DNA from: Phycisphaerales bacterium
GTDB taxonomy: Bacteria; Planctomycetota; Phycisphaerae; Phycisphaerales; UBA1924
Reading direction: 5' to 3'
NCBI GenBank assembly: GCA_051252395.1
Contig: JBPOFX010000001.1
Span: 557,835-621,834, forward strand
DNA: 64,000 bases
Of this stretch, positions 23,205 to 57,462 are shown piece after piece; position 1 is the stretch's first letter, and each line of letters begins with the position of its first letter. The notes under the pieces were generated by a model. It was given only the letters and a program-made list of their open reading frames with translations, had not been told where the DNA came from and searched no databases. Made by a program: the position numbers and the translations under genes.

Positions 23205-26200
23205 TTATCTTGTGATTTGATCAAGAATATACGGATCCTTGATCTCGTTATCGCGTGCGAGCAACAAGACTTTCGAGAGAACCTCGGCAGACTTTGGATC
23301 ATCATCGGCAAAGGGAAGGAATATCCGGCCACGGTGCTGACTATGAACGGCCACGATGAACATTGCTTTTCCGGGAAGCACAGATGTAGAAGCACTCCCC
23401 AGATGTACCGAATAGGTCGCCCGGGTACCATCGATGATTGCATGATGATCCTTGACCTGTACATTATTCAATCCAAGAAGGATACATGTTTCTCTCAAGA
23501 GGGATGCTCGCATTTCAACAGTTGATGCTGATGCTTCAGGATCCACTCCTCCAGCGTGTGCAACACTGACGACAAGATCAAGATCACGCATTGCTTCACT
23601 GAATATACGATCAGGAATTTCACCCATCGCAATATGCTGCTCTTTATCCCCTTTGCGTTTAAATGCAACACCTTCGAGCGTTAAACCTTCGACTTCTGCA
23701 GGTGTGTAAAAATGCTCTTGGAACCAAAGCTCTGCAATTAACTTTTCATCATGAAATACCTTGCGAACCCCTTCTTCAGGAGAATGGATCCACTGACGCC
23801 CCTTGAGCAACGCGAGAGCTTGTCGAGGGTTCACTTGATGCCCGGCATATCGAGTTGTCATATCACAGTGATCAAGCTCAGACTTTGTCTTAGGATATAC
23901 CTCTCTAAAGACTTGTTTGAATGGCTGGATGCGCTCGGCTTCGAAGCAATCGCGTTGCCAATCATTCCAGCTTCCAGTGTTGAGTAAATCAATAGGGTGT
24001 GCAACCCGTAACTTGTCCGAGTTTCCTACCGGCTCTAGTCCTCCATCAATGCTTCGTAAGAGTTGTCCTGATTTTTCTGGATATCCGATGAGTTTGCCGT
24101 CGCCGATGAAAACTAACCGTTCAATCATCGGTCTGAGAATTGGATGGGCTGCGAACTCTTTGAGCTCGGCCCTGGAGAACTCATCACCTCTGCACATGGA
24201 TTCCTCAAGTGATATACGCATCCGGGATCGCTGCTTACGAAGTTCGGTGACTCGAGAACGCAAATGGGTGATCTGTTCATTCTTCCTGAGTTTGGCAGGT
24301 ACACTCTTGAGCTTCTTGCCCTTCTTTAGCACAGTTAACTCAGGCTCGCCCGATTCTGTGATTGAAAGAGAAACGCTTGTCTCTTCTACAGTGACAACCA
24401 CTGGGCCTTTAGCGAGATCAGCAACCGCTTGTGATTCCATAGCCCACTGCAGACGCCTTGGATCACGGAAACCTGCTGTTCTTGCGAGGTTCTGCATCGC
24501 AATTGCGACCGACTTCCCCTCGCTCGCTTGGCGTTGACTTCCAAACTGACGGCTTTGACGCTTGAACTCTTGGATTTGTGTATAGCGAGTAAGCAACTCA
24601 TTCTTCGCATCTGATTTTTTCTTCGGCAAAGGGATCAAACCGAGTGCGCGGACAGCGTCCTGATGCCGCTTGTCATGAATTCGTAAAAGGAGTTCATCCT
24701 CATCTAAGCGATGAAGCATTGCATCGGCAAAGAGCTGCGCTCGCTTATGCCCTCCACTGTTCGAGGCATACTTCGCAGGCTTTTGCAGCTTCGTCCATCC
24801 ATCTTCACCAACGAGTTCAATCACTTGAGTAAACCATCGGACATCTACAGCCCCTTCTTCCAGATCCTCGGAGTCGAGTTCGGTTCGCTCATTAATCTGA
24901 GCCGCCCAGATTTCTCGAAAGTCTTGATTCCGCCAATAATCATTCTTTTTCGTGTGTGCGTGAATCCACCACACGGCTTCCTCAAGGCCGTCTATCCCGA
25001 GGGCATACTCTGCATGCGATGCCCATTGAGGAGCAAACATGACGAGTTCAAGCAGCCGCGTTTCCTGAAGTCCTGATGATTGATAGAGCCGGGAGAATAA
25101 TTTTGGCGAATCGTCCTCTGTTGGATTTGTTACCGAGATGAGCCGGCTGTATGAATATGCTCTGGTAGGATCCCCCCACTGGTCTTGACGAACAATCTTG
25201 TCTTTCCCTAAGGCAACAGCGAAATCGAAGAATACTTTGGCGCCACCTGAGAAACGAAGCGATGCGGCCGGATGACTGGCTGGCATAAGCATTTCACCAC
25301 GCGTGAGTTCCAATGCGACAATGCGATTCCGCATTTCATCAACTGATCGAGTTAGCTCTGTTCTGTCGCCGATTGCCTTATGCGTTTTGAAACCTGTCAG
25401 TTCATTGATTGGGCCCAATATCACGGAGGGACCATATGCGTATCCATCGCGCTTTGGTTGTACTCGCGGATGGAGCATGAGCCAAACAAAGTCTCGATCA
25501 TTGACCAATCCATTGTCAAAAGCTGCAACGAACTCCTCTACCGTAGGGCCATAGCAATATGGTTCATCCCGATCCAACGCTAGTATCTTGAGCACGCCGA
25601 GTTGGATGATGTCATTCTTGGTGAACAAATACTTATGATCAGTGCGGATAGAAGCTTGGACATGTGCCCGTTTTGATACTAAGCCTGTCTCTCGATACCC
25701 TCGATCCTCTCGAAGATCTGCTTTTTCTTGGTCACTCATTGCGTCACGAGCGAGTGAGTCTTCGAAGTATTGAACAAGCATTTTTCCAGCGTTCTGTGGT
25801 TCTGAAAGGAGCATCAGCCAGGAAACCAATCTCTCAAATCCGTATCGCAACTGCCAAACATATCTTTCTTGGAATGGCTTTGGAAGGAGCTTCATGTACG
25901 AATCACCACGATGGATCCATGCCATAGCACGAACCAGCTCTAGTCCATCCGAATCACGCGTTTCCTTTGACCGATTGTCAAGCCAATCCAGCCAAACATC
26001 GCATAACGGAAGACGCTCGGCCGCTTCCTTACGGTGATTCTCACTTGCCTTCGGCTTTGGAAACTTCCATCCGGCAGATGAAAGTAGTTCTACGCTCTTC
26101 CCCTGATCCCCTAGCTCGCCCTCTTCAAGTTTAACTTCTGTTTCACCATGAAGAATAAACAAATCAGCGATTTCTTTGAGACATTTCTTCGTGGCAGAAG

Positions 26201-28142
26201 TTTCGATTCGAACACCTACAAACTTCGGTTTGATCGTTGGGCATCGCGACCCCTTTGGGACAAGCCCAAGGCAATCATCAAGGGTAACTACTTCAGTAGC
26301 TTCACCAAGAATCCGACCCAGTGTCTCTTTCTGATCTTTGTCAGCGAACACGTCTTCATATGATCGAACTAGTGCCTGCACTTTCTTAGCGGAGCGATTG
26401 TTTTCGACTAAATGTGATGCGAGTTCAAGCCCAGCTGCCCGTTTTTTGGCGTTCTTGTCCCCGATCAATATGCCAATGATTTCAACTACCTTGACATCTT
26501 TGAGCTTCGACAGTCGACTAATTGCACCTTGACGAAGACTCGCGGCTGTCCGGTGCAAGTTGGACATCAGCAACTCAACTTCGTCTTCCTCGACGGGGAG
26601 CTTATCGATCGCCAAGAATGCAGCCTTCTGAACATCTTGACGCGGATCGCAGGTGAGTTGTATAACCGCTGAGCGGGCTTGAGCTGTGAGCTTACTTGGT
26701 TTTCGTTTGACCCTCTTCCCATTGACCCAGCTGTGCCCAGTCTCAGCTAGATGATTAATAAGATTGACAACATCCCATGAATCAAGTGCGTGCATATATG
26801 GGGTCATGAGATCTGGCGAGCCAGCTGACATTGCCTTGAGAGCCGAAGCGACCACTCGTCGATCGTACTCATACTTTGCCCAAGGCCAAACGATGGGGTC
26901 AAGTTTCTTCTTGCGTTTGGGCATTGAGTTGAAGAGAGTACCCAAAGATTGAAACAACTCAGGAGTTACTGAAGTAAACTGGATACGAGCAATGAATGAC
27001 AACATGGCCATGAGCACGCGCTCATCCTTTTCCTCGTGAGATCGTAATCGTGTCGCTATTCTTTCAACTGACTCTGGTAGTAGAGCGAGGTGTTCGAGAA
27101 TTTTTACGGCAACGAATCTGCGTTCTGCACATTGATGAACCAACGCCACCTCAGCCTGTTTCACAGCTTCTTGCGCATTCAGATACGCGCTGACCCATAG
27201 CGCAAGATAAGCCTCGGCTGGCTTAGCGGATTCGATCGCCTGCAATCTCGCTTTTTCGTCATCTAAATACAAGCAGAGTGAATCAATACCATCGTGAACA
27301 ACTTTACTGCTTCCACTGGCCCATTGCATACCGAGCCACGCATCGAATGCACGAACAGTAGCACTGAAACGCGCTAAATCATGTTCACGAATGATGCCCA
27401 GCATATATCGAAATGCTTCTGGATTGGCCCCGTCGATTGCCTCCAGTATTGACTGGCGTAAGCCCTCCTGTCGCTGAGCAGCGAGCAATAATTTAGCGAT
27501 GACTTCCCAATCATCACGCTGATTTGAGTTGAGCATCGCAGAGATGACATGATGCCCCATATCACCAATTTCATGATCACCATTGATCGAGTCCACAAGA
27601 ACGCTTCGTACACGATCAGCATCATCACCGCCTTGTCGTAGGACAGTGGCGAGCAACCAACCGATATGTGCCTTGGGCTCATTGGAGTACATCTTGAGAT
27701 GCTGCGACCAAGCCGCGACCCATTCAATGTCTTCCTTGTAGCCGGCGAGCGAGTCACACAGTGAGAGGAAGAAACGAGCCCGATTGGCATCGACACTCTC
27801 AGCTCTATCTGGTGCACGAAAAGGAAATCGTATGTAGCCATGTTGATATGGGCGATCGCCTGCAGTTTGCCACGCTTGCTCAATATGCAGTGCCATCTTC
27901 GGGAACAATGAGTCCCAGAGCTTCAGCCTTCGTTTCTCATCGATCTTACTGAAGTACTTTATCGTTCGCTGCTGTCGGTCATCATTCTCGATATGACGGT
28001 AGCCATCTCTTTTATGGTCAACGATCGATCTCAACTCATCTCGTGCCTTGCCGGGTGTTCGAATCAGTTTCTTTATTTGAGCGTCGATCCATTTGACATC
28101 ACGAGCGTCTTCGGCTTGTTGCTGTAGATTTTCTCGATCCAC
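23205..28142 (-). CDS. giant (1645 aa) alpha-helical repeat protein of unknown function. The C-terminal region possibly belongs to the DUF4132 (MolR/YehI-like) family.
   Basis: Uninterrupted 4.9-kb ORF. It starts 17 nt after the stop of the 142-aa ORF and lies in the same orientation downstream of rtcA. It is helical and HEAT/ARM-like over most of its length. The C-terminal third contains W-x-x-W...QPFKQVFREVY and ...YSVHLGSASTSV... blocks that I recall as DUF4132-like (from memory, unverified). Confidence 0.6.
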   Translation of the reverse strand: MDRENLQQQAEDARDVKWIDAQIKKLIRTPGKARDELRSIVDHKRDGYRHIENDDRQQRTIKYFSKIDEKRRLKLWDSLFPKMALHIEQAWQTAGDRPYQHGYIRFPFRAPDRAESVDANRARFFLSLCDSLAGYKEDIEWVAAWSQHLKMYSNEPKAHIGWLLATVLRQGGDDADRVRSVLVDSINGDHEIGDMGHHVISAMLNSNQRDDWEVIAKLLLAAQRQEGLRQSILEAIDGANPEAFRYMLGIIREHDLARFSATVRAFDAWLGMQWASGSSKVVHDGIDSLCLYLDDEKARLQAIESAKPAEAYLALWVSAYLNAQEAVKQAEVALVHQCAERRFVAVKILEHLALLPESVERIATRLRSHEEKDERVLMAMLSFIARIQFTSVTPELFQSLGTLFNSMPKRKKKLDPIVWPWAKYEYDRRVVASALKAMSAGSPDLMTPYMHALDSWDVVNLINHLAETGHSWVNGKRVKRKPSKLTAQARSAVIQLTCDPRQDVQKAAFLAIDKLPVEEDEVELLMSNLHRTAASLRQGAISRLSKLKDVKVVEIIGILIGDKNAKKRAAGLELASHLVENNRSAKKVQALVRSYEDVFADKDQKETLGRILGEATEVVTLDDCLGLVPKGSRCPTIKPKFVGVRIETSATKKCLKEIADLFILHGETEVKLEEGELGDQGKSVELLSSAGWKFPKPKASENHRKEAAERLPLCDVWLDWLDNRSKETRDSDGLELVRAMAWIHRGDSYMKLLPKPFQERYVWQLRYGFERLVSWLMLLSEPQNAGKMLVQYFEDSLARDAMSDQEKADLREDRGYRETGLVSKRAHVQASIRTDHKYLFTKNDIIQLGVLKILALDRDEPYCYGPTVEEFVAAFDNGLVNDRDFVWLMLHPRVQPKRDGYAYGPSVILGPINELTGFKTHKAIGDRTELTRSVDEMRNRIVALELTRGEMLMPASHPAASLRFSGGAKVFFDFAVALGKDKIVRQDQWGDPTRAYSYSRLISVTNPTEDDSPKLFSRLYQSSGLQETRLLELVMFAPQWASHAEYALGIDGLEEAVWWIHAHTKKNDYWRNQDFREIWAAQINERTELDSEDLEEGAVDVRWFTQVIELVGEDGWTKLQKPAKYASNSGGHKRAQLFADAMLHRLDEDELLLRIHDKRHQDAVRALGLIPLPKKKSDAKNELLTRYTQIQEFKRQSRQFGSQRQASEGKSVAIAMQNLARTAGFRDPRRLQWAMESQAVADLAKGPVVVTVEETSVSLSITESGEPELTVLKKGKKLKSVPAKLRKNEQITHLRSRVTELRKQRSRMRISLEESMCRGDEFSRAELKEFAAHPILRPMIERLVFIGDGKLIGYPEKSGQLLRSIDGGLEPVGNSDKLRVAHPIDLLNTGSWNDWQRDCFEAERIQPFKQVFREVYPKTKSELDHCDMTTRYAGHQVNPRQALALLKGRQWIHSPEEGVRKVFHDEKLIAELWFQEHFYTPAEVEGLTLEGVAFKRKGDKEQHIAMGEIPDRIFSEAMRDLDLVVSVAHAGGVDPEASASTVEMRASLLRETCILLGLNNVQVKDHHAIIDGTRATYSVHLGSASTSVLPGKAMFIVAVHSQHRGRIFLPFADDDPKSAEVLSKVLLLARDNEIKDPYILDQITR

Positions 28143-28159
28143 TGTATACTCCGAGTTGT

Positions 28160-28588
28160 TTATGCCCCAGCCAAAAAGACAAGGCGGATAAATGTAATAT
28201 GACTCGTTGGACTTAGCTGGACAATCTCATCAAGACATTTCCGTTCGACTTCATCGATAACTACAAGGTATAGCCCATCAATAAACCCCATCAGGGCAGC
28301 CCCAACAGCCTCTTCGACATCCACAGAATGGGGAATGCTCTTGTTTGCAGGATCGATTTTCCCTAAAACTATCCCACGGTCTATTTGCGACTTGCTCAGT
28401 ACTCGATCAAACTGCAACTGCTCCTGCCGACGATCAAACTTGGCAACTTCGCTATGTACGATGTGCTCAATGATTTTACGGAGTGTTAAATCATCCCCAT
28501 CACCAATCTCAGATGGAGGGGGCACACTGAAATCCGCGAGCAGCGGCTTCCGTTTACCAAGCAATCTCGTTGAAACAACAATGGACAA
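28160..28588 (-). CDS. hypothetical protein (142 aa), probably co-transcribed with the giant ORF
   Basis: The ORF lies 145 nt downstream of rtcA and 17 nt upstream of the 1645-aa ORF. No motif recognised. Confidence 0.45.
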   Translation of the reverse strand: MSIVVSTRLLGKRKPLLADFSVPPPSEIGDGDDLTLRKIIEHIVHSEVAKFDRRQEQLQFDRVLSKSQIDRGIVLGKIDPANKSIPHSVDVEEAVGAALMGFIDGLYLVVIDEVERKCLDEIVQLSPTSHITFIRLVFLAGA

Positions 28589-28733: not shown

Positions 28734-29750
28734 TCAAACAATCCGGACTGTATTCAATCCCCGATCGAGTTCTTTCGATTGAATCTTGATCTGCAAAAAC
28801 TGCTCGATCACGAATGCATTTGTCTCCGAATGAGGAGTCAGAGCACATGTCCTGAACTCCCCCACTCCTGCCATCGCAAACGGGAGCATAAGTTGATCAG
28901 CGAGATGACTCCATACTGGTACACCCTTGTGCAAGTAATGATGGACTTGTGCCGCCGTTGATTTGGCCACACGCTCAGCGGATCGTCCGCGCTCGCCGAA
29001 TCCAGTAAAGACCTCGGTTACATGCTCACTCTGTATCTCGATGCTGAGCACATTCCCAGGGCCTACTGAATCAGCGAGTTGCTCGATGCAAAGCGAGTCC
29101 TGCTCCCATTCAAGATTCTTAGCGATCACATCCAACTCTCGTTTTGCAATGTCAGTGGATAGTCCAGCGACTGTAGCAGTCGCTGTCTGTGCGACAATAT
29201 CACCACGCTCCACGATTGACACTGGCGCAAGTTTCTTTACCGGATCAATTTCAACCCGGATCCGTCCTCCTCCAGCGGGGTAAAAACCATGTCGCTCGAT
29301 CTCAACACGCACACGCGGCCCCATTCGTTCGATGATTGGCAGGAACGACTTGCAAAGAAAATCGACACTGGGCGCGTGGGTATTGTGCGTCCCGCCCTCG
29401 ATCATCACCACCGATGGCGCAGAAGCGATCATCAACGCGGGAAGAATCGTTTGAAGCACAAGTGTTGTGCTCCCAGCCGAGCCGATGGCGAAAGAATACT
29501 CTCCGCTCTGGACTGGTCCTGGTCGAAACTCTACCTTGGACGATCCGAGTTCTGCTCCCGTGACCTTTGCACCACATACGGCGGCTGCTGCTTTGACCGC
29601 GGTGAGGTGTTGGCGCAAAAGCCCCGGCTTCTGACGGCCGGAGCGAATTTTCTCGATGCAAAAAGGGCGAGCAGTCACCATCGAGAGTGCCAAAGCACTT
29701 CGAAGGATCTGCCCGCCGCCTTCGCCTGTTGAGCCATCAATATGAATCAT
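28734..29750 (-). CDS. rtcA: RNA 3'-terminal phosphate cyclase
   Basis: MIHIDGSTGEGGGQILRSALALSM...GLLRQHLTAVKAA...FAIGSAGSTTLVLQTILPAL...HGFYPAGGG aligns residue-for-residue with E. coli RtcA as I recall it. Confidence 0.9.
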   Translation of the reverse strand: MIHIDGSTGEGGGQILRSALALSMVTARPFCIEKIRSGRQKPGLLRQHLTAVKAAAAVCGAKVTGAELGSSKVEFRPGPVQSGEYSFAIGSAGSTTLVLQTILPALMIASAPSVVMIEGGTHNTHAPSVDFLCKSFLPIIERMGPRVRVEIERHGFYPAGGGRIRVEIDPVKKLAPVSIVERGDIVAQTATATVAGLSTDIAKRELDVIAKNLEWEQDSLCIEQLADSVGPGNVLSIEIQSEHVTEVFTGFGERGRSAERVAKSTAAQVHHYLHKGVPVWSHLADQLMLPFAMAGVGEFRTCALTPHSETNAFVIEQFLQIKIQSKELDRGLNTVRIV

Positions 29751-29766
29751 GAATGTAACCTCTCAA

Positions 29767-31281
29767 CTAGTCGTCGGCTTTGTCGCCGTCCTTAATAACA
29801 AACTTTGCGTCCAAGCGGGCGACCTCGCTTGCGAGGCCTGCAGTTTTGACTGACTTCAGTACTTCCTCGAAGTCTTTGTATGCCGCAGGTGCTTCGTCGA
29901 TCGGGTAGTTTCGACAGTTCGAGAGGATATCTCGGTCTGCGAATGATTGATCGACGACCTTCTGGTCCAAGTCTCGCTTCGCGCCGGTTCGTGACATTGC
30001 TCGTCCTGCACCGTGGTTGACGCTGTAGCACGAGAGCGCAGCGCCGGCGTCGGCGACCATGACTGCGGATCCGTCCTGTGGATTCCCTGGGAGCAGGATC
30101 GGGTGTCCGGTCTCTGCGAAAGGGGTGTCCTTGAGGCCGTGGTGACCTGCAGGGAAGGCGCGGGTGGCGCCCTTGCGGTGGACCCACTCCATGCGATCAT
30201 TGACAACTTCTTGGCGTGCGATGTTGTGGCTGATGAAGTACACCAGTCGGCCATCGATGCCTGGGAAGATCTCTTGGAACGCGTCGAGTACGAGCGCGTT
30301 AATCAACAGGTGATTGACGGTCGCGAAGTTTGCTCCCAGTGACATATCGTCGATATAAGAATCTGCTTCGGGAGTTCCGAGCGGTGCGCAGACGAGGTTT
30401 CGGTCACCTCCAGGGAGCGGGATATCCCACTTCGCAAAGTGATCCTGCAGAGTACGAAACTGTCCTGATGCGAGATCGTGACCGAATCCGCGTGATCCGC
30501 AGTGCGAGAGGAAAGCGACGCCGCCGTCGCGGAGTCCGAAGACTTCTGCGACTTTCTTGCTGCGGTCTGACTCTCCAACACGGACGACTTCGCATTCACC
30601 GAAGTGATTTCCTCCGCCGTAGGAACCGAGCTGGCGCATCTTTCCTGCGAAACGCTCTCCGAAGCGGAGACGCTTTCCGGTATTGAACTGCGGATCGTTG
30701 CAGAGGATATCGAGACGAGCGCGGAGCGCATCGTGGGAGCCGTCGTGTCCGACATGTGTGCTGTCTTCGCAGCGATCTGCCCACTCTGGTGGGATCCCGA
30801 GTTGGTTGCATACATCCTCCGATGCGCCCTCGGCGACCAGCTGGCGTCCGAGTTCCTCGGAGACAGGACGAGCCTTCTTGACATGGCGCTGACCCCGACC
30901 GGTTCCCGTTGGGGTCCGCTCGCAGATCGCTTCGATGAGTGCGCGGCGAGTCTTGCGATCCACAATCGCGTCCTCGTCGATGTCGACTGCGAGGAGGCTC
31001 ATGGAACACTTAATGTCCACGCCGACCGGTCCTGGGTAGATGTGCGAAGGGGAAGACATGACGCAACCGACGGGGGCGCCGTATCCGACATGAGCGTCTG
31101 GATTGAGGACAACCTGTGAGACGCCTGGCGCCATTGCGGAGTTGATCGCTTGCTGCAAGCAGGGCGCATCGAATGTCTTTCGGATTGATTCGGTTCCGAT
31201 CACAGTGACCGGCTTCTGGTTGTTTGGAAGGGGAAGGATCGCGGTTGCTTCCCCGGTTTCGATCAGCGTTGATTCAGACAT
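29767..31281 (-). CDS. rtcB: RNA-splicing ligase RtcB (3'-phosphate/5'-OH RNA ligase)
   Basis: NPDAHVGYGAPVGCV, the GGNHFGE-type metal site and the C-terminal SVNHGAGRAMSRTGAK...PAAYKD blocks match the RtcB family. It lies 16 nt upstream of rtcA. Confidence 0.9.
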   Translation of the reverse strand: MSESTLIETGEATAILPLPNNQKPVTVIGTESIRKTFDAPCLQQAINSAMAPGVSQVVLNPDAHVGYGAPVGCVMSSPSHIYPGPVGVDIKCSMSLLAVDIDEDAIVDRKTRRALIEAICERTPTGTGRGQRHVKKARPVSEELGRQLVAEGASEDVCNQLGIPPEWADRCEDSTHVGHDGSHDALRARLDILCNDPQFNTGKRLRFGERFAGKMRQLGSYGGGNHFGECEVVRVGESDRSKKVAEVFGLRDGGVAFLSHCGSRGFGHDLASGQFRTLQDHFAKWDIPLPGGDRNLVCAPLGTPEADSYIDDMSLGANFATVNHLLINALVLDAFQEIFPGIDGRLVYFISHNIARQEVVNDRMEWVHRKGATRAFPAGHHGLKDTPFAETGHPILLPGNPQDGSAVMVADAGAALSCYSVNHGAGRAMSRTGAKRDLDQKVVDQSFADRDILSNCRNYPIDEAPAAYKDFEEVLKSVKTAGLASEVARLDAKFVIKDGDKADD

Positions 31282-31436
31282 TGTGATACTCCTTTGTATT
31301 CATATACTCATTGAACGGTGAATGGCGGGGATTGAACCTGCAACATTCGGATTCTGGGACCGATGCTTCTTTCTGTTCGGTTACGAATTCTGTTCTTGAA
31401 TCGTGTCTCGTCTGCTTTCGCAGACGGGACGCGTGG

Positions 31437-32621
31437 TTATTGCACTGCCTCACGCTTGATGAGGCTGCTGATCTGCTCGCTCAGATCTCCTTGTCCGAGC
31501 ACGAAGGTTGCTTCGGTGCCTCGCAGGATTTCCTGCAGGGCTTCAAGTTCCTTCATGCGTGCGAGCACGGGGTTCTGTTCGAGGAGCTTTGCGGTGTTTG
31601 CCTGGCTCCGTGCGGCGGCGGTTTCCTCTCGGCGACGGATCAGGTTTGCTTCCGCTTGCTTCTCGGCGACAATGACCTGGTTGAGGATCACCTTCATGTC
31701 GCCGGGAAGGATGATGTCTCGGAGTCCGACACCCATGACTGAAACCCCGAACTGGGCTGCGCGGTTTGCGAGCCTGTTTTTGATTTCGCCTCCGACTTCG
31801 TCCTTGTCTGCGAGCAGTTTCTCGAGCGAGCGGCCGCCGATGGCAGAGCGGAGTTCGAGCTGTGCTTCTCGGTACAAAGCTTGCGACCAGTCAACGACTT
31901 CGGTGACGGCCTTGACGGGATCGGTGACGCGATGGGTCACGACGAGGTTGACCCTGAGGGTTACCTTGTCGGCGGTCATGATCTCTTGGCCTTGGATGTC
32001 TTCGACCTGCTCGCGCAGATCGATCGACTTCCAGGTGAAGCTTGGGCCTCCGCGCCAGAAGGTGTAGCGTCCTGCTCCGAGTTGGTCGACGAGCTTGCCG
32101 TCCATGAACAGCATGACCTGTTCGTGGGACTCAACTCGAACGCCGGTGAAGAAGCGGATACCTCCTGGGAAGTTCTCGATGGTTTCGAGCTTTGGGTGCT
32201 CGAACCGACCTGAGCTGACATCAAAGCGTTCGACGACGATCTCTGCATTCTGAGTCCAGAATGCGTGGACCCCTGCTGAGAGGATCGAACCGAGTCGTCC
32301 GTCGATCCAGACCAGCGCACGCTCTGTATCCTTGAGGTCAACGACGCACAGACGCGACGCGATGCGGGGATCGCGGACGAGTGCATTGAGATCGTTGTGC
32401 TCGAAACGCGGGGAGAGGGTGTTGATCGTCTCGAACCGATCGCACTTGGCGCCGAACGGCATGGACCATGCGTTGTACTTCCCCTGATCGAGGACTCGGT
32501 GGAGTTCGTTGTGACGGAACCACAGTCCGAGTTCATGCTTACGGATTCGGATGGTCTTTCTCATGGCTTGGCTCCTTTCGTTGGGCGTTTGTGCATGAGG
32601 CACTTGGTGCAGTTCAAACAA
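31437..32621 (-). CDS. SPFH / band-7 (stomatin-prohibitin-flotillin-HflKC) domain protein with ~170-aa N-terminal extension
   Basis: The C-terminal ~230 aa show the SPFH signature (TADKVTLRVNLVVTHRVTDPVKAV...ELRSAIGGRSLEKLLADKDEV...GVGLRDIILPGDMKVILNQVIVAEKQAEANLIRRREETAAA). It is the first ORF of the sigma54-driven rtc transcription unit. Confidence 0.8.
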   Translation of the reverse strand: MFELHQVPHAQTPNERSQAMRKTIRIRKHELGLWFRHNELHRVLDQGKYNAWSMPFGAKCDRFETINTLSPRFEHNDLNALVRDPRIASRLCVVDLKDTERALVWIDGRLGSILSAGVHAFWTQNAEIVVERFDVSSGRFEHPKLETIENFPGGIRFFTGVRVESHEQVMLFMDGKLVDQLGAGRYTFWRGGPSFTWKSIDLREQVEDIQGQEIMTADKVTLRVNLVVTHRVTDPVKAVTEVVDWSQALYREAQLELRSAIGGRSLEKLLADKDEVGGEIKNRLANRAAQFGVSVMGVGLRDIILPGDMKVILNQVIVAEKQAEANLIRRREETAAARSQANTAKLLEQNPVLARMKELEALQEILRGTEATFVLGQGDLSEQISSLIKREAVQ

Positions 32622-32949
32622 ATGCGTCTGACGACTGAGACACCATGATCATTAAATGCGGATTGAAAGCGTCCTCACACGCGTCCACCCAGTTCTTCGG
32701 CGGGGCATGGTTTCAGACAGTCCTGGGCGTTCTCGATGCTGCGAGCGCCCCACTGCTTGCGGAGAAGAGTGGTGCGCGTGCTGGGCATGTTGAAGTTCGA
32801 GGAGTGTCGGGATCAACCGAGCCTCGGGCTGAGTCATTGGTGCTGATCCAGAGTCATCAAGGTGCGTGCACGAGGATGAGGACTGGATCTGCTGTGTCTG
32901 CGTGATTGGCTCACTCTCAATCCACTTCGATAGCCAGAGTTTTGAAGTC

Positions 32950-33205
32950 TGGAGATATGGGGATTCGAACCCCAGGGCGTAGCCCTTGACCTGTGATGCG
33001 TGCGGGACTCGAACCCGCGACCGGCGAGTTTGGTACTCGCTGCTCTAACCAGCTGAGCTAGCGCAACACGCTATGTTCATCGGGAGAACCCATGCCGCGG
33101 GACCCATGGACTTCAGAGAAGTTTGAGCCGCTGGACGATGGAACAAAGCGAATGGATGCAGAGGGAATCGAACCCTCAGCCGGGGGGAGATGCAATCCCT
33201 CCCCC
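32950..33205 (-). ncRNA. cluster of three tRNA-like modules in the rtc operon leader. One is a near-complete tRNA-like element (32994-33067) with anticodon-loop TACCAAA. One is a 3' tRNA fragment with encoded CCA (32950-32991). One is a 10-bp GC hairpin plus T-arm module (33131-33205).
   Basis: Minus strand. (i) A D-arm TAGCTCAGCTGGTTAGAGC, an anticodon arm GCGAG-TACCAAA-CTCGC (A at position 33, not the universal U) and a T-arm GCGGG-TTCGAGT-CCCGC. The acceptor pairs at only 5 of 7 positions. (ii) ...AGGGCTACGCCCT-GGGG-TTCGAAT-CCCC-ATATCTCCA. (iii) CCGGGGGGAG-GGATTGCAT-CTCCCCCCGG followed by GAGGG-TTCGATT-CCCTC-TGCATCCA. Confidence 0.55.
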
Positions 33206-33286
33206 CGGCGTGGCCAATATGCGATCCTGATTGATCATGGTGTCTCAGTTGTCAGAGAAGCAGCTTGTTGAGCTGAGATACAGCTA

Positions 33287-33302
33287 TGCAGTTGGTGTGC
33301 CA
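33287..33302 (-). promoter_or_regulatory. sigma54 (RpoN) -24/-12 promoter reading leftward into the tRNA-like leader, SPFH gene, rtcB and rtcA
   Basis: The minus strand reads TGGCAC-ACCAA-CTGCA, with GG and GC exactly 10 nt apart and one mismatch to TGGCAC-N5-TTGCW. It lies 113 bp from the divergent rtcR start codon, the canonical rtcR / rtcBA arrangement. Confidence 0.6.
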
Positions 33303-33414
33303 AAGATGTCGAAGCTGCTTATTTGCCTCTAATGGTCGTTTTTGAACACTTTGATGACCATGGATATCTATTTATCTATCAAAATATATCGTAATCTATC
33401 CGATATAATCGCCT

Positions 33415-35019
33415 ATGGATACACAGAAACGCAAACCAACTGTCGTGATCGGGCTTCTCGGGACGACGCTGGATATCGGCAAGGGGACGAAGCGATGGGA
33501 ACGCTGGAGGCCGACGGTTTCGCTTTGTCAGCATGAGGACTTTGTGGTCGATCGGCTCGAGCTCATCCATAGCAAACGCGCGACGGCGCTTGCAGAGTTG
33601 GTCGAAGCGGATATTCGATCGGTTTCGCCTGAGACGACGGTGGTTCGGCACAGGGTTGAGATGCGTGACGCGTGGGACTTCCAGGAGGTCTACACGAAGC
33701 TCCATGACTTTGCACGCGCATATGCGTTTGACACGGATACCGAAGACTATCTCGTGCACATCACGACTGGGACGCATGTCGCGCAGATCTGCAACTTCTT
33801 GCTGACTGAAACAAGCTACTTTCCTGCGAAGCTGATTCAGACCTCTCCTCCTCGTGGGAAGAAGGAGGGAGCGGGACGGATTCAGATTATTGATCTGGAT
33901 CTCTCGAAGTATGATCGGCTCGCATCAAGATTTGAGCGTGAGTACGAAGACGCGGTCGAATCTCTCAAGGATGGCATCGAGACCAGAAACAAAGCATTCA
34001 ACTCACTCATTGAACGCATCGAGCAAGTCGCCGTACGAACTACAGACCCAATCCTGCTCACCGGCCCCACGGGGGCAGGAAAATCTCGACTCGCAAGTCG
34101 AATCTTTGATCTTCGCAAGCACAGGCACCTAGTGACCGGCCATCTCGTCGAAGTCAACTGCGCCACCATTCGTGGCGATTCGGCAATGTCCACGCTCTTT
34201 GGACACAAAAAGGGCGCGTTCACCGGCGCTGTGACTGATCGCCCTGGACTCCTTCGTAGGGCGCATGGCGGAACGCTCTTCTTAGATGAAATCGGCGAGC
34301 TGGGTATCGATGAACAGGCCATGCTCCTGCGGGCGATTGAAGAGAAGCGATTCACCCCTCTCGGCTCGGATGTCGAAGTATCAAGCGATTTTCAGCTCAT
34401 AGCGGGAACAAACCGAAACCTAATCGATCATGTTCGCCAAGGCTTATTCCGCGACGATCTACTCGCACGGATCAATCTTTGGACATTCGAGCTCCCGGCA
34501 TTACGCGATCGCCCCGAGGATATCGAGCCCAATATCGAGTTTGAACTTGAACGACTCTCCCAAAGCCGAAATCAACGAGCGAGATTCAGCAAAGAAGCCC
34601 ATCGCCGCTTTCTTGATTTTGCAACCTCACCAGAAGCAACCTGGCCCGGCAACTTTCGGGATTTGAACGCCGCCCTTACCCGTATGTCCACACTCGCGCT
34701 TGGCGGACGCATCACTGTTGAGACTGTTGAGGAAGAAACCAGTCGGCTTCTCACATTATGGGAGAGCCCTACCCGTACGAGCCATGACAGACTACTCTCG
34801 GAGCTACTCACCCAAGAACAAATCTCCGAGATTGACCTCTTTGATCAAGCTCAGCTTACTTTTGTATTCGATGTGTGTCGAAATTCAAACTCACTATCTG
34901 ATGCTGGGCGAAAGCTATTCGCCGCTTCTCGCGTCCGACGGTCATCCACAAACGATTCTGATCGTGTACGGAAATACCTTGCCAAGTTTGGATTGGACTG
35001 GGACCGGGTCACTTCATAG
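33415..35019 (+). CDS. rtcR: sigma54-dependent transcriptional activator RtcR (N-terminal CARF domain, AAA+ sigma54-activator domain, C-terminal HTH)
   Basis: 534 aa, collinear and about half identical by eye with E. coli RtcR. Matching blocks are KWRPT, VSPET, YLVHITTGTHVAQIC, LTGPTGAGKS, GAFTGA (GAFTGA loop), FLDEIGELG and KYLAKFGL. Confidence 0.9.
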   Translation: MDTQKRKPTVVIGLLGTTLDIGKGTKRWERWRPTVSLCQHEDFVVDRLELIHSKRATALAELVEADIRSVSPETTVVRHRVEMRDAWDFQEVYTKLHDFARAYAFDTDTEDYLVHITTGTHVAQICNFLLTETSYFPAKLIQTSPPRGKKEGAGRIQIIDLDLSKYDRLASRFEREYEDAVESLKDGIETRNKAFNSLIERIEQVAVRTTDPILLTGPTGAGKSRLASRIFDLRKHRHLVTGHLVEVNCATIRGDSAMSTLFGHKKGAFTGAVTDRPGLLRRAHGGTLFLDEIGELGIDEQAMLLRAIEEKRFTPLGSDVEVSSDFQLIAGTNRNLIDHVRQGLFRDDLLARINLWTFELPALRDRPEDIEPNIEFELERLSQSRNQRARFSKEAHRRFLDFATSPEATWPGNFRDLNAALTRMSTLALGGRITVETVEEETSRLLTLWESPTRTSHDRLLSELLTQEQISEIDLFDQAQLTFVFDVCRNSNSLSDAGRKLFAASRVRRSSTNDSDRVRKYLAKFGLDWDRVTS

Positions 35020-35141
35020 CGGTTATCGACTTCAGCTTCGTCCATAATACGGCAGTGCCCCACAACCTGAAGCAGAGCAGGAAAACTTGTTGCCCCCTAC
35101 CATTCTTACGACCACTATCGAAGAAAGCAGACTATGAAATC

Positions 35142-35651
35142 ATGACGACGCCACCTGCAAACCAATCAAGTTCGGACCAACGCCCGGATTGGGACCAATA
35201 CTTCCTTGACCTCGCGGAACAAGTCAGCAGAAGATCTCCAGATCCGAACACAAAGCACGGTTGTGTGCTTGTCGACTCTGGACGCCGAGTACTGAGCACA
35301 GGCTATAACGGCCCCTTGTCTGGGCTTCCTCATGATTTGATTCGGTTTGATCGCCCAAATAAATATGACTGGTTTATTCATGCAGAAGATAACGCAGTCG
35401 CCTTTGCTCGGTGCGATCTTCGAGGAACAACCGCGTATATAACTGGAACCCCTTGCGTAGCCTGCTTTCGTCGGCTGCTACAGGTTGGAGTCATACGAAT
35501 CGTTCAGGGCGATCGCCATTCTGCATGCTTAGAGGCAAGAGAGATGGATGCCTGCCAGCAGATGGCCAGAGCAGTCGGTATCGAGTGGATTGTTTATGAC
35601 AATGACGGTATTCATCGATTGGGCCGAGATGGCTTCAGCAACTGCTCATAA
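35142..35651 (+). CDS. dCMP/cytidine deaminase-family zinc-dependent deaminase
   Basis: HAEDNA (H-A-E zinc/catalytic motif) and TPCVACFRRL (PCxxC) motifs. The start was chosen at the MTTPPANQ ATG inside the ORF-track ORF 35055-35651. Confidence 0.65.
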   Translation: MTTPPANQSSSDQRPDWDQYFLDLAEQVSRRSPDPNTKHGCVLVDSGRRVLSTGYNGPLSGLPHDLIRFDRPNKYDWFIHAEDNAVAFARCDLRGTTAYITGTPCVACFRRLLQVGVIRIVQGDRHSACLEAREMDACQQMARAVGIEWIVYDNDGIHRLGRDGFSNCS

Positions 35652-50357: not shown

Positions 50358-51764
50358 TCATTGCTCACACCCGACTACACTCGCTACACGCTCGGCCTTC
50401 TTCCCCGTAAACGCCTCCCACCGATTCACGATCACATCGCAGTACGCCGGATCGATCTCCATGAGCCGAGCGTGCCGCCCCATCTGCTCAGCCGCCATCA
50501 GCGTCGAGCCCGACCCACCAAATAGATCCAACACCCGTTCCCCTCGCTTCGACGAGTACTCCATTGCCCTTGACGCAAGCTCGACCGGCTTCTCGGTCAG
50601 ATGCACCATGCTTTGGGGGTTCACCTTCTTGATCGGCCAGACATCGGGGATGTTCTTGGGCCCGTAGAACCTGTGCGCCGCACCCTCACGCCACCCGTAG
50701 AAACACCACTCGTGGTCGCCCATGAAGTCCTTGCGCCCCAGCACCGGATGGAGCTTGTGCCAGATGATCGACTGGCTGAAGTACAAGCCCGAATCCGTGA
50801 ACGCACCAGGATAGTTAGCGATGTTCGCGTACCCGCCCCAGCAGTAGAATGCCCTCCCCGGCTCCAATACACGGGCCATATTGCCAAACCATGCCCGGAG
50901 CATGATTGCGAAGGATTCATCGTCCATAAAGTCGTTGGCGAGCGGGCGGTCTTTCGCACGCATCTTCTTGGTGGTCGGTGACGATTTACCGGGATGCCGG
51001 GCAAGATCCCGCTGCTGCATGTGCGTGCTTGCTTTGGTTGCCGCCGCTGGGAACGATGAGAGACCCGCACTGATCGCGTTGTTTGAGCGCGGCTCAACCT
51101 TCACGTTGTACGGCGGATCGGTGTTGACGAGATGGATGCTCTGACCATCACACAACCGATCGACATCCTCAGCCTTCGAGCTATCCCCGCAGAGGAGTCG
51201 GTGGTTCCCCAGGATCCACAGATTACCCGGCTTGGTGATCGGGTCGTCGGGAGCTTCGGGGATCACATCGGGATCGGGTTCGGTTCCGACTCCCCCCATC
51301 GTGAGCGACGCAAGCTGCGCATCGTCAAAGCCGAACGCCGCCAGTTCCTCGATATCGATCCCCAACGCGACGAGCGCCTCGAGCTCGCTGTCGAGCAGCC
51401 CTGTGTCCCAGTGCGCGAGCTCTGCGGCCCGGTTGTCGGCCAGCCGGTACGCCCTCGCCTTCTCCGGAGTGAGGTCCGTTGCGACATGCACCGGGACCTC
51501 GCTGAGCCCCAGCTGCTGCGCCGCCTTCCACCGCGTGTGCCCGCAGACGATCACCATGTTGCGATCAACAACGATCGGCTGCCTGAACCCAAAGTCCGTG
51601 ATACTCTTGGCGACCGCGTCGATCGCCTGATCGTTGATCCTTGGGTTGGTCTCGAATGGTGTGATGTCCCCCACTGTCTTCATTTCTATCTTCATCTGGT
51701 TCCCCCTTTGTTCTGTTGTGTGACAGGTGACAGATCGTGACAGGTTTTCCAAGAAGTCCCCCAT
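50358..51764 (-). CDS. ParB-like nuclease (ParB/Srx) domain fused to an amino-group DNA methyltransferase (N6-A / N4-C, DPPY motif)
   Basis: The N-terminal GHTRWKAAQQLG matches the ParB GxxRxxAA box. Mid-protein VNTDPPYN (MTase motif IV) and C-terminal SAM-binding blocks are present. This fusion is common in phages and ICEs. Confidence 0.8.
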   Translation of the reverse strand: MGDFLENLSRSVTCHTTEQRGNQMKIEMKTVGDITPFETNPRINDQAIDAVAKSITDFGFRQPIVVDRNMVIVCGHTRWKAAQQLGLSEVPVHVATDLTPEKARAYRLADNRAAELAHWDTGLLDSELEALVALGIDIEELAAFGFDDAQLASLTMGGVGTEPDPDVIPEAPDDPITKPGNLWILGNHRLLCGDSSKAEDVDRLCDGQSIHLVNTDPPYNVKVEPRSNNAISAGLSSFPAAATKASTHMQQRDLARHPGKSSPTTKKMRAKDRPLANDFMDDESFAIMLRAWFGNMARVLEPGRAFYCWGGYANIANYPGAFTDSGLYFSQSIIWHKLHPVLGRKDFMGDHEWCFYGWREGAAHRFYGPKNIPDVWPIKKVNPQSMVHLTEKPVELASRAMEYSSKRGERVLDLFGGSGSTLMAAEQMGRHARLMEIDPAYCDVIVNRWEAFTGKKAERVASVVGCEQ

Positions 51765-51910
51765 ACGCGCGCGTAGGAAAAGTCTTGGGAATATCTGTCA
51801 TACCTGTCACCATTTCCGTAAGTCATTGATTTTAATTGCCTTAAGCAGTGACAGATAGCATTCGGATCTGTCACCAATCTGTCATTTTCCCTTCTATCTG
51901 TCATGGTGCT
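51720..51910. repeat. iteron-like array: about 10 direct and inverted copies of TGACAG / (AT)CTGTCA(CC)
   Basis: gtgacaggtgacagatcgtgacagg ... atctgtcatacctgtcacc ... cagtgacagatag ... gatctgtcaccaatctgtcatttt ... ctatctgtcatgg, lying between the primase stop and the ParB-MTase start. Confidence 0.5.
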
Positions 51911-54105: not shown

Positions 54106-54110
54106 CCCCG

Positions 54111-54545
54111 CTAGTTCGCTTTCCTAGCGGGCTTGTCTTTGTTGGTGTGGTTCTCGCCCCTGAGAACCCTGAGTTTGTACCGCTCAGGCTCGAACGCTCG
54201 ATCAGCCAACGCCAAGAAGATGTGCCCCACCGACTCCCCCTCGGGTGATCCAGTATCGATCTGGATCGTCCCAAGCTGTTCGCTTGAACTGTACCGTGTT
54301 CCCAATCTGAGCTTCGCTTCGCTATAGAGCCCGCTCGCGGCGATGATCGCCAACTGAACAAGCTCCTCGGCTTCGCAGACGTCTTTCGTGTCTTCAAACT
54401 GACACTGAATCGATTTGATATTCATACTCCCCCACCAGCTGTATAGGCCTCTGGTCTTCCGAACGCTCCCCGAGCGATGAAAGTCGACAGAGACAACCCT
54501 CTCCCCATATATACATATCCAATCTGGAACGATGGTGTCGAACAA
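54111..54545 (-). CDS. hypothetical protein (144 aa) upstream of and coupled to the primase
   Basis: ORF ending 6 nt before the primase start. No motif recognised. Confidence 0.35.
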   Translation of the reverse strand: MFDTIVPDWICIYGERVVSVDFHRSGSVRKTRGLYSWWGSMNIKSIQCQFEDTKDVCEAEELVQLAIIAASGLYSEAKLRLGTRYSSSEQLGTIQIDTGSPEGESVGHIFLALADRAFEPERYKLRVLRGENHTNKDKPARKAN

Positions 54546-54548
54546 ATA

Positions 54549-55217
54549 TCACATTTCTTCGTATCTTTTGAACCGTCTTTGGATGTCGTTGCTTTGCTTC
54601 TTCACCTGGTACCTTGATACACCGCGCCATTCAGCGGTTTGCTTCACACTCGACCTCGATACTTCGAGTAGCAGATCGGCATCCTCATCTGAAATCTGCG
54701 TGAGGATGTGCTGTACATAGTCAATGAGATCAAAAAGCTCTGTGAATCTGTAATTCTCAATCCCAAGCCTGCGTGAATAACTCTCATTATCCATCAGTTC
54801 TGAGACCTCCACAAACTCCCTAGTAAGCGGATCCACCATGCAATCGCTCTGGAAGTACACCTTGTTCTCCGGGCACCTCTTTCGGGCTCTCGAATCGCGG
54901 ATGTATTTCTTGGCGAAGTTGTTGATCACCTCAGTGGCAAAGGTGATTGGTGCCGACTGGGTGGGGTCATACTGTTCATCGATTTGTATTAACCACAGTC
55001 TGCACTCTTGCTCGAAGTCTTCCCGATCACACGCCCTGATCCCCCCGCTGTTCACAAGTTCCGTTGCCTGAACCACAATGTGTGTCTGAACCTTGTCGTC
55101 GTCAATGAGTCTGTACTGTGATTTCATTCGCATCTTTCCCCCGCTGATACGGGATTCTCGCTTGTGATCTAGGCGCAGGATACCTGTGCCGCGATGACTC
55201 ACGGCAAACTTGGGCAC
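54549..55217 (-). CDS. putative sigma-70/ECF-like sigma factor or HTH regulator
   Basis: The C-terminal LLEVSRSSVKQTAEWRGVSRYQVKK resembles a sigma region-4 HTH. A weak region-2-like segment precedes it. Confidence 0.4.
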   Translation of the reverse strand: MPKFAVSHRGTGILRLDHKRESRISGGKMRMKSQYRLIDDDKVQTHIVVQATELVNSGGIRACDREDFEQECRLWLIQIDEQYDPTQSAPITFATEVINNFAKKYIRDSRARKRCPENKVYFQSDCMVDPLTREFVEVSELMDNESYSRRLGIENYRFTELFDLIDYVQHILTQISDEDADLLLEVSRSSVKQTAEWRGVSRYQVKKQSNDIQRRFKRYEEM

Positions 55218-55463
55218 TGCCCTAGACCGATGTGATTTCTGCTTGGATCAGTTCAACTTCTGCTCTTCCCACCCGTCATTCCATTGGATAACCCTCCCCG
55301 TTTCTTTGGGTTTGATGATCGTGATTGAGTTGATTGGGATGATCCCACCCCATTCGAAATCATGTACACTCACAGCTCATGAATGGCCCGAGTGCTGTCT
55401 TTGGCACTGAAATTATAGCGAAGATAGCGACTTCGCGACTTGCATAGATTGTGGATTGCGCTG

Positions 55464-55871
55464 TTATTTTTCGCCATGCAAGCTCTTGAGCTCCTCCCAG
55501 CGCAGAACTTGCTCACTCCATCGTACGAGAGACACAACCTCTCGAATCCCATGCTCATGGATACGGTCTTCCCATGGATCTGAGCCATTAAAGTCCAAGA
55601 TCTCTTCTTGGATCAAAGGACACAAATGCAACAGGTTCATGATCTGCGTCATCCGTGGCTGCGTCACTTGAGCCAGCAACGCAAGCTCTGACTGATTCTC
55701 CATCACACCGTCCTTGAGCAGTTGGTCGTACCGGATCGCGAGCGCCATCAGCTTGGAGATCCTTGGGACTCTCTGCCCGCCCTGCTCACCCTGTTCAGGC
55801 TCTGGCTCACGCACGATCCGTTTGCGTTTACCATTCACCGCGAAATGTACCGGTCTCGTCACTGTCGTCAT
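55464..55871 (-). CDS. hypothetical protein (135 aa) coupled to the serine recombinase (ATGA overlap)
   Basis: ORF overlapping the recombinase stop by 4 nt. Unknown function. Confidence 0.35.
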   Translation of the reverse strand: MTTVTRPVHFAVNGKRKRIVREPEPEQGEQGGQRVPRISKLMALAIRYDQLLKDGVMENQSELALLAQVTQPRMTQIMNLLHLCPLIQEEILDFNGSDPWEDRIHEHGIREVVSLVRWSEQVLRWEELKSLHGEK

Positions 55872-57436: not shown

Positions 57437-57462
57437 AGACCCCCCTTTGGTACTCGTTTCAC

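Follow-up and report, generated by a model that had tools for sequence, protein, structure and literature searches.

A conserved, multi-module leader RNA associated with a soluble SPFH gene in an RtcR-linked RNA-repair locus of Phycisphaerales

Described systems and the layout of the locus

The Rtc RNA-repair system is understood for the ligase RtcB, the cyclase RtcA, and the regulator RtcR, which does not apply to the accessory protein–RNA pairs. One such pair is found in the rsr-yrlBA-rtcBA operon of Salmonella, where RtcR is switched on by damaged tRNA. In M. smegmatis (yrlA-yrlB-rsr), a single precursor encoded upstream of rsr is processed into tandem Y RNAs that carry T-arms. Another pair was described in a preprint on the structure of YrlA (bioRxiv 10.1101/312249), which states, crediting Burroughs & Aravind 2016, that in certain bacteria RtcB adjoins a Band-7 protein and a predicted non-coding RNA, termed 'band 7-associated tRNA' and abbreviated b7a-tRNA, which 'strongly resembles an authentic tRNA' and was proposed as the counterpart of the Y RNA in Ro-containing operons. 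In P. aeruginosa, the rtc locus consists of PA4581 (rtcR), PA4582/PaFlo8 (an SPFH gene), rtcB, PA4584, and rtcA. Furthermore, long arrays of tRNA genes (L-arrays) with linkage to HNH and rtcB genes were reported in 2021, and a sponge role was proposed for the array tRNAs (PMC8421152). Here, we analyzed a 64-kb stretch of DNA from a Phycisphaerales bacterium (contig JBPOFX010000001.1, positions 557,835 to 621,834; hereafter the window), in which rtcR stands divergent to a Band-7/rtcB/rtcA operon, and we describe the leader RNA that precedes the Band-7 gene. Positions are those of the window, and the core locus comprises the following features:

33415..35019, plus strand: rtcR, sigma54-dependent activator with an RtcR/CARF-type N-terminal domain (Pfam RtcR 3.5e-83, Sigma54_activat 1.7e-47)
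33287..33302, minus strand: predicted sigma54 -24/-12 promoter, TGGCAC-N5-CTGCA (motif scan and conservation)
32562..32578, minus strand: ribosome-binding site AAAGGAG and ATG of the Band-7 gene (AAAGGAG unchanged in A2, the leader alignment of the window and eight relatives)
31437..32564, minus strand: Band-7/SPFH ('slipin family') protein, 375 amino acids (aa), soluble (Pfam Band_7 1.1e-28)
31319..31390, minus strand: decayed tRNA remnant in the 155-nucleotide (nt) spacer between Band-7 and rtcB (Rfam tRNA 18.8 bits, E-value 0.11, under the gathering score)
29767..31281, minus strand: rtcB, RNA ligase (Pfam RtcB 1.5e-101)
28734..29750, minus strand: rtcA, RNA 3'-phosphate cyclase (Pfam RTC 1.2e-78 and RTC_insert)

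With a divergent RtcR that has CARF-type and sigma54-interaction domains, a predicted -24/-12 promoter, rtcB, and rtcA, the window resembles the described RtcR/sigma54-controlled rtcBA operons. The rtcR gene starts with an ATG at 33415, and rtcB starts 155 nt past the Band-7 stop codon. The sequence TGGCACACCAACTGCA at 33287-33302 on the minus strand is the sole match to TGGCAC-N5-YTGCW in 64 kb and lies 113 bp from the rtcR ATG; an earlier reading of this DNA, made from the sequence only, had proposed a near-consensus sigma54 promoter at this distance, and the coordinates agree. The sequence-only reading had also stated that an SPFH/band-7 gene takes the place of rsr while the Ro/Rsr gene is absent. 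This is in line with the Pfam results, which revealed a Band_7 domain and no TROVE domain in the operon or in ten other window open reading frames (ORFs) of 420–700 aa that were scanned, with two ORFs of 438 and 448 aa (58976-61571) outside the scan.

For comparison, we collected relatives by a Band-7 protein scan with one genome per species, which yielded 80 loci, mostly from Phycisphaerae and other Planctomycetota. Twelve of these loci share the layout of the window, i.e., divergent rtcR followed by Band-7, rtcB, and rtcA, and a few carry rtcB and rtcA upstream instead. The motif TGGCAC-N5-nTGCA is kept ~740 nt before the Band-7 ATG in 12 out of 12 loci with divergent rtcR, and is missing from rtcR-less loci, except for two distant and differently placed matches (L037 and L039). 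As divergent rtcR, then Band-7, then rtcB is also the order in P. aeruginosa and in B. cenocepacia, and as the b7a-tRNA had already been predicted next to RtcB and Band-7 according to the preprint, the suggestion that the window represents a distinct, undescribed variant could not be upheld. With the b7a-tRNA system, as far as the preprint text describes it, the window shares the Band-7/SPFH gene beside rtcB, the RtcB ligase itself, a non-coding RNA resembling tRNA, and the recurrence of this arrangement. However, the RNA of the window is a composite of four modules (A, M, B, and C) and downstream blocks, and module M is not tRNA-like, a difference that is set here against a secondary citation of the b7a-tRNA only.

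A 375-aa 'slipin family protein' from a metagenome-assembled genome of Phycisphaerales matches the Band-7 protein with 100% identity, and this match fixes the start of the latter at 32564. A longer version starting with TTG (32621) was rejected in favour of this ATG, which matches both the database protein and the conserved ribosome-binding site. No membrane segment or N-terminal anchor was detected in the protein (best 19-residue hydropathy 1.2). In an AlphaFold model (predicted local distance difference test score, pLDDT, 81.7), ~140 residues form five-stranded beta units, after which come the SPFH domain and a long helix. The N-terminal 140 aa had no Pfam or NCBIfam assignment. Best fold matches were stomatin, HflK, and prohibitin, and the longest alignments were obtained with the major vault protein. 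Membrane-anchored SPFH proteins such as stomatin and HflK/C have the SPFH domain in common with the window protein, but the latter lacks an N-terminal anchor and its N-terminus is predicted to be all beta strand. In the vault particle, formed by the major vault protein with its SPFH-like shoulder, vault RNA, and the TROVE-domain protein TEP1, a soluble protein combines beta repeats, an SPFH-type domain, and a long helix and is tied to a small structured RNA, and the window protein may resemble it in this respect. A phage origin was also considered and rejected, since a search of viral contigs yielded no relative of the Band-7 protein.

The leader RNA and its association with the Band-7 gene

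The Band-7 gene is preceded by a conserved, structured, non-coding multi-module leader, which is tied to this soluble SPFH gene and lies behind the predicted sigma54 promoter that co-occurs with rtcR. In alignment A2, conservation covers ~740 nt, from the promoter through the ribosome-binding site. The leader comprises three T-arm modules (A, B, and C), the non-tRNA domain M, and further conserved blocks, all on the minus strand. The T-loop string GGTTCGANTCC occurs five times in the window, compared to 0.14 expected copies. Two of these copies belong to true tRNAs, and the remaining three lie within 214 nt of the leader (33164-33174, 33005-33015, and 32961-32971), where three minus-strand T-arm elements between the promoter and the first ORF had been noticed before. 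Two checks proposed together with that observation gave positive results: folding of a 351-nt part of the leader was more favourable than that of 100 of 100 shuffled sequences (z = -3.7), and the T-arm modules are kept across the rtc/Band-7 leaders of relatives. A small ORF in the ~385-nt spacer (61 aa, 32652-32837) was discarded, as it showed tblastx matches in all frames and no Pfam match; matches in all frames point to conservation at the nucleotide level, i.e., to a non-coding spacer. The modules and their prevalence among the loci are as follows:

33154..33227, minus strand: module A, reduced tRNA shape (folding, compensatory changes; nhmmer matches in 14 loci)
33078..33140, minus strand: module M, rod-like P1-P4-P2-P3'-P3, not tRNA-shaped (covariation, covariance model R1; nhmmer matches of the A–B stretch, M, in 36 loci)
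32994..33067, minus strand: module B, band-7-associated tRNA-like RNA, full cloverleaf (ARAGORN, Rfam tRNA, comparative; nhmmer matches in 72 loci)
32959..32993, minus strand: module C, D-loop-like UGGUC/UGGYA, hairpin AGGGC-UAC-GCCCU, and T-arm GGGG-UUCGAAU-CCCC (comparative; nhmmer matches in 29 loci)
32934..32952, minus strand: hairpin CCAGA-loop-UCUGG (predicted in the window, conserved)

Module B is the closest tRNA mimic of the leader. ARAGORN called it as tRNA-Trp(cca) at 32993-33067, and the Rfam tRNA model scored it with 45.2 bits. Pseudo or low-score tRNA calls had been expected for these elements, which applies to module B only in part: it clearly exceeds the gathering score of 29, yet it remains 20–26 bits under the three true tRNAs of the window (66–72 bits). 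The copies in relatives scored between 41 and 64 bits. In the window copy, the anticodon loop reads UACCAAA, which places an A at position 33, and two acceptor mismatches (U2/U71 and C7/A66) leave five of seven acceptor pairs; the D-arm, anticodon arm, T-arm, A33, and both mismatches are all present as they had been described for the middle element. CCA is encoded neither by module B nor by the true tRNAs of the window. Module B sits 430 nt before the Band-7 ATG on the same strand and was found upstream of Band-7 in 71 of the 80 loci.

For loop and stem statistics, 66 copies of module B were parsed. The D stem GCUC/GAGC was unchanged in 65 of them, and the anticodon and T stems were 95% and 100% paired, respectively, with many changes on both sides. 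The anticodon loop varied in length (7 nt in 47 copies, 6 nt in 14, 5 nt in 3, and 9 nt in 2) and even more in sequence, with 56 distinct loops among the 66 copies and 24 central triplets among the 47 seven-nt loops. Loops differed even where the Band-7 proteins are 85–89% identical. Within the seven-nt loops, the positions around the triplet largely followed those of tRNA (Y32 in 47/47, U33 in 35/47, R37 in 43/47, and A38 in 41/47). Acceptor stems were compared with register offsets allowed, since the end conventions of ARAGORN confounded a fixed-register control; in the best register, seven pairs were formed in only one of 50 module B copies, compared to 228 of 276 array tRNAs. With D and T arms unchanged, the acceptor eroded, and the anticodon loop drifting, the comparison identifies module B as a putative tRNA mimic that is constrained at the elbow (D/T arms) and not at the anticodon or the acceptor end. 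By the same sequence criteria, module B is predicted not to decode. The sequence-only reading had likewise regarded the elements as non-decoding, a view that A33, the acceptor mismatches, the loops of 5–9 nt, the 24 different 'anticodons', and a GAAA tetraloop in Burkholderia strengthen.

Module M lies between modules A and B and had not been part of the earlier description. P1, P4, and P2 stack into an irregular rod with a variable apical hairpin and with conserved bulges, GAC(A) and UUCUnC, on the 3' strand. In an alignment of 37 sequences, 87.7% of the cells were paired, compared to ≤45% when partners were slid by one to three columns, and covariation amounted to 0.43 compared to 0.19 in shuffled alignments, none of which (0/500) reached as high a value. 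The covariance model R1 gave one match per locus in 66 of the 80 loci and one in the window (33059-33152, 63.5 bits), all on the Band-7 strand and with no second match in 64 kb. Over 67 sequences, 90.6% of the cells were paired and changes on both sides occurred at 20 of 22 pairs; because this larger alignment was fitted to the covariance model, these values lean towards structure. Module M had no Rfam match at E ≤ 10. It ends ~4 nt before module B and precedes it in 60 of 61 loci. Module M is probably an undescribed RNA domain.

To which gene the RNA belongs can be read from the relatives. It co-occurs with Band-7 in ~70 of the 80 loci, while Rtc genes lie within 4 kb in only ~18 and ~60 have no Rtc genes there. 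At nearly every locus, a tRNA-like call was obtained ~350–700 nt upstream of Band-7 on the same strand. Among the 74 loci whose upstream sequence exceeds 900 nt, the detectors used found both M and B in 61, only B in seven, only M in three, and neither in three. Modules M and B therefore accompany Band-7 across distant relatives, whether Rtc genes are near or not. This argues against the primary link to Rtc that had been drawn for the tRNA-like RNAs; by gene neighbourhood, the RNA appears to go with the Band-7 gene and not with the Rtc genes.

The layout recurs in B. cenocepacia. The locus there (L082; NZ_CP091013.1, 4464-4730) combines an rtcR with 59% identity, a sigma54-type promoter (TGGCACGCTCCTCGCT), an A-like module with a 7-bp acceptor, and a tRNA-like RNA carrying a GAAA tetraloop for the anticodon loop, followed by Band-7 (35% identity) and then RtcB. 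Model R1 detected no module M at this locus. While the gene order is that of the window, the P. aeruginosa and B. cenocepacia systems differ from it in their Band-7 proteins, which are only ~35% identical, and the Burkholderia locus differs further in the tetraloop and the missing R1 match.

In many relatives, M, B, and Band-7 lie within long arrays of tRNA genes that score normally, share one strand, and flank Band-7 on both sides; an HNH endonuclease and a paralogue of RtcB (27% identity) accompany them. Up to ~18 same-strand tRNA genes occur in such array-type loci (L020-L027, L030, L045, L051, L053, and L078). This matches the L-arrays (PMC8421152); however, the window has no array and contains only the decayed remnant at 31319-31390, and the paper names no Band-7 gene or tRNA-like partner. 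Furthermore, 9 of the 12 relatives with divergent rtcR have Band-7 and rtcB separated by one to six tRNA genes. Seven loci (L001-L004 and L015-L017) have three to six normal-scoring tRNA genes at ~+1160 to +1900 from the Band-7 start, inside the RtcR/sigma54 operon. As relatives hold tRNA genes inside this operon or around Band-7, tRNA supply may be induced together with repair.

Modules A and C are less widespread. Module A consists of an acceptor-like stem (GGAU(C)GCA/UGCAUCC), an 11-nt remnant of a D-region with GG, a 10–12-bp hairpin, and the T-arm GAGGG-UUCGAUU-CCCUC, with no CCA. The 10-bp GC hairpin and T-arm that had been reported for this upstream element are thus present, but they do not make up the whole module, as an acceptor-like stem closes it. 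In single-sequence minimum free energy folds, a cloverleaf-like junction of closing stem, long hairpin, and T-arm was predicted for 13 of 15 sequences. The stems vary by compensatory change between clades (GGAUGCA/UGCAUCC, GGACGC/GCGUCC, and ACCGCA/UGCGGU). A weak match to the tRNA-like domain of tmRNA (16.4 bits, 33160-33218) falls within module A, and array-type relatives have a normal-looking tRNA-Trp(CCA) at its position. At the place of module C, a second T-arm was found in 35 loci. Its T stem is abutted by a 3–7-bp hairpin of varying sequence in 33 of 33 aligned sequences and shows a compensatory change (GG to GA and CC to UC) in two sequences. This element had been interpreted as a T-arm with an acceptor 3' strand and encoded CCA. 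The corresponding sequence, ATATCTCCA, is indeed present, but ATATC ahead of the CCA is missing from the closest relatives (L001-L003), and the CCA forms the 5' strand of the conserved hairpin CCAGA/UCUGG, the fifth pair of which switches between A-U, U-A, and G-C (L004, L012, L078, and L028). An acceptor with encoded CCA is therefore not supported.

In several respects the leader parallels the Y RNAs of Salmonella and M. smegmatis, namely in RtcR and sigma54 control, in tandem T-arm non-coding RNAs together with a non-enzymatic partner, RtcB, and RtcA, and in RNAs that mimic tRNA and presumably do not decode. The partner in the window, however, is an SPFH protein and not Ro60/TROVE. Like those of M. 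smegmatis, the RNAs of the window precede the partner gene, whereas those of Salmonella lie between the partner and rtcB. Covariance models of Y RNA and YrlA gave no match at E ≤ 10 over 32500-33500, no known RNA family besides tRNA matched the leader above a weak level, and no Ro-binding stem was evident in the folds, for which no dedicated search was made. With neither such a match nor a Ro gene among the ORFs scanned, the label 'Y-RNA-like' fails as a statement of membership, and the likeness to Y RNAs would be one of functional analogy only.

Possible roles of the leader RNA

On balance, we consider it probable that the locus is a Phycisphaerales (Planctomycetota) representative of the RtcB/Band-7/b7a-tRNA repair system under RtcR and sigma54, with the leader as the RNA partner of a soluble SPFH scaffold in tRNA repair. 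RtcR, activated by damaged tRNA as in Salmonella, would drive a single long transcript, the tRNA-shaped modules of which could fold independently and either stay linked or be cut out by tRNA-processing nucleases. The soluble SPFH protein might bind the modules through their elbow regions, probably as a ring or cage like other SPFH proteins. By analogy, the particle could play the part of Ro60 and Y RNA in the Salmonella operon, i.e., that of a scaffold bringing broken tRNAs or tRNA-like substrates to RtcB/RtcA. The idea of a scaffold derives from the absence of a membrane segment, from the fold matches to the major vault protein and to SPFH proteins that form rings and cages, and from the precedent of the M. 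smegmatis Y RNA precursor.

Several points weigh against this proposal. Conservation runs to the ribosome-binding site with no convincing terminator before Band-7, for which reason a purely cis-acting leader fits equally well. The weak acceptor stem of module B and the position of module M 4 nt upstream argue against a clean release by RNase P. Moreover, the pair of Band-7 and tRNA-like RNA is a prediction from gene neighbourhoods; b7a-tRNA was unvalidated as of 2018 according to the preprint (bioRxiv 10.1101/312249), and neither an experimental test nor a later experimental follow-up was found in the searchable literature.

A further-reaching version of the proposal is put forward as tentative and appears possible rather than probable to us. 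Here, b7a-tRNA would comprise several domains and span at least 300 nt, and its module M would be tied to the soluble, vault-like SPFH protein as faithfully as the tRNA mimic. RNA and protein would form a bacterial ribonucleoprotein cage or ring that handles damaged tRNAs and would join Ro/Y RNA and vault/vault RNA as a third class, located either under RtcR or in mobile tRNA arrays, and module M would represent a new RNA family.

The main rival is a leader that acts in cis. In this case, the modules would be cut by RNase P/Z/E or by tRNA-damaging ribotoxins, thereby determining how stable the Band-7/rtcB/rtcA message is or how well it is translated, and would serve as damage sensor or processing signal with no free RNA. 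Such a role would agree not only with the conservation up to the ribosome-binding site and the missing terminator between modules and Band-7, but also with the distance from module B to the start codon, fixed at ~430 nt (window), and with the array-type relatives, where processing of a tRNA precursor is needed to free the Band-7 message. However, the unchanged D and T arms and the covarying module M resemble a stable folded particle rather than cleavage signals, eroded acceptor stems are poor RNase P substrates by the acceptor-length rule, and the Ro/Y RNA precedent favours a trans-acting RNA. We regard a purely cis-acting leader as unlikely, albeit as the most serious of the alternatives.

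Less plausible still is a decoy or sponge, in which module B, and perhaps A and C, would be bait for anticodon nucleases or other tRNA-directed toxins, either sparing tRNAs or yielding cyclic-phosphate fragments that RtcR senses. Seven-nt loops that largely keep the tRNA signature, while the 'anticodon' takes 24 values and differs even between close relatives, would suit such a bait, and array tRNAs have been suggested to act as a sponge (PMC8421152). On the other hand, 19 of 66 module B loops have 5, 6, or 9 nt, Burkholderia carries a GAAA tetraloop, A33 is found in the window copy, the RNA is tightly linked to Band-7 and not to any nuclease, and YrlA was not cut by the Salmonella nuclease.

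That the modules are dead remnants of a tRNA gene array with no function of their own seems highly improbable. Relatives with long same-strand tRNA arrays around Band-7, the decayed tRNA at 31319-31390, and the position of module A at the place of the array-type tRNA-Trp could hint at such an origin, yet the stems of A, B, and C are kept by compensatory changes where the proteins are only 55–89% identical, module M is equally conserved and not derived from tRNA, and real decay looks different, with 18.8 bits for the remnant at 31319-31390 compared to 45 bits for module B. We give even less credence to true Y RNAs of the YrlA/YrlB type serving a Ro60 protein encoded elsewhere in the genome: although tRNA-like D/T arms and RtcR-controlled operons are known from the Salmonella Y RNAs, none of the Y RNA or YrlA models of Rfam matched the leader at E ≤ 10, no TROVE protein was detected among the scanned ORFs of the 64-kb window, the RNA follows Band-7 in the 80-locus set, and no long terminal stem of the Ro-binding type was seen in the folds, where no dedicated search was made. 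Finally, a working tRNA-Trp isoacceptor, as suggested by the ARAGORN call and the Rfam gathering score, can practically be discounted for module B, which has A33 and two acceptor mismatches in the window, scores 20–26 bits below the true tRNAs there, and has orthologues with other 'anticodons' and other loop sizes.

For the proposed pairing of SPFH scaffold and leader RNA, the locus and its 80 relatives provide the boundaries of the RNA modules, a covariance model for module M, a constraint on the elbow and not on the anticodon, and an association with SPFH and not with the ligase. The hypothesis is directly testable, since the layout occurs in B. cenocepacia and P. aeruginosa and roughly one in four complete E. 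coli genomes carries a related slipin island. A further question, raised by the connection with tRNA arrays that stress induces, is whether repair, tRNA resupply, and the SPFH particle are one response.

Further features of the leader and neighbouring genes

Apart from the modules, four conserved elements were recognized in the leader:

33241..33259, minus strand: 5' leader motif YUCUYUGACA (conserved in A2; just downstream of the predicted start site)
32901..32925, minus strand: conserved block GUGGRUYGAGRG (A2; also in many array-type loci as GUGGGUCGGGG)
32804..32843, minus strand: block E, GCACC...GACnCrGCC...GGCUCGGyGGAUaCCGAC (nhmmer matches in 24 loci, A2)
32654..32716, minus strand: block F, including the hairpin CCCGCC-GAAGAA-CUGGG (nhmmer matches in 16 loci, A2)

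The motif YUCUYUGACA is also kept in five loci with neither rtcR nor the sigma54 promoter (L006, L010, L011, L013, and L018). A sigma70 promoter in the conserved TTGACA-like motif was considered and dismissed, as the scan found none on the leader strand. In the stretch from the modules to Band-7, no convincing intrinsic terminator was recognized; a weak hairpin that resembles a terminator and is trailed by U-rich sequence immediately precedes the ribosome-binding site of Band-7 (32614-32643, minus strand) and, among relatives, is shared by the closest ones only (L001-L004). In a second subtype of the leader, the conserved string GCAGGUUGUGGGAGUGAUYC follows module B by ~60–100 nt, at the place that module C occupies in the window (L035, L037, L042, L043, L046, L049, L052, L055, L056, L060, and L070).

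In E. coli, the slipin gene (32% identity over the full length) forms an island with a nucleotidyltransferase and a zeta toxin gene between yjbD and lysC (L081/L083), which is present in 1425 of 5426 complete E. coli genomes. The 529-nt region upstream of this slipin contains TGGCACGCTTCTCGCA, an M-like core CGGC...GUGUUCCG (R1 8.3 bits, E 0.44), and the T-arm UGGGUUCGAUUCCCA. It was not accepted as a clear homologue of the leader, given an R1 score of only 8.3 bits, no Rfam match, and a fold z-score of -1.0; the homology is weak.

Upstream of the promoter, an inverted repeat, TATCG-N9-CGATA (33387-33405), is located 85–103 nt upstream of the -24 element and just before the rtcR start. The repeat is kept in L001, L002, and L004 and may serve as a binding site for RtcR or as the operator of rtcR. 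A gene of the dCMP/cytidine-deaminase family, which scored below every NCBIfam cut-off, begins 36 nt after rtcR (35055-35651, plus strand). On the other side of the locus, rtcA is followed on the same strand (23205-28588, minus strand) by a 142-aa ORF, to which no Pfam or NCBIfam family was assigned, and by a 1645-aa protein with the domains DUF5724, DUF4132, and DUF7737; both may be part of the transcription unit of rtcA. Further away, a cluster of mobile-element/defence type (50358-61571) encodes a ParB-domain DNA methylase, a large serine recombinase, and an HsdM-type N6 methylase.

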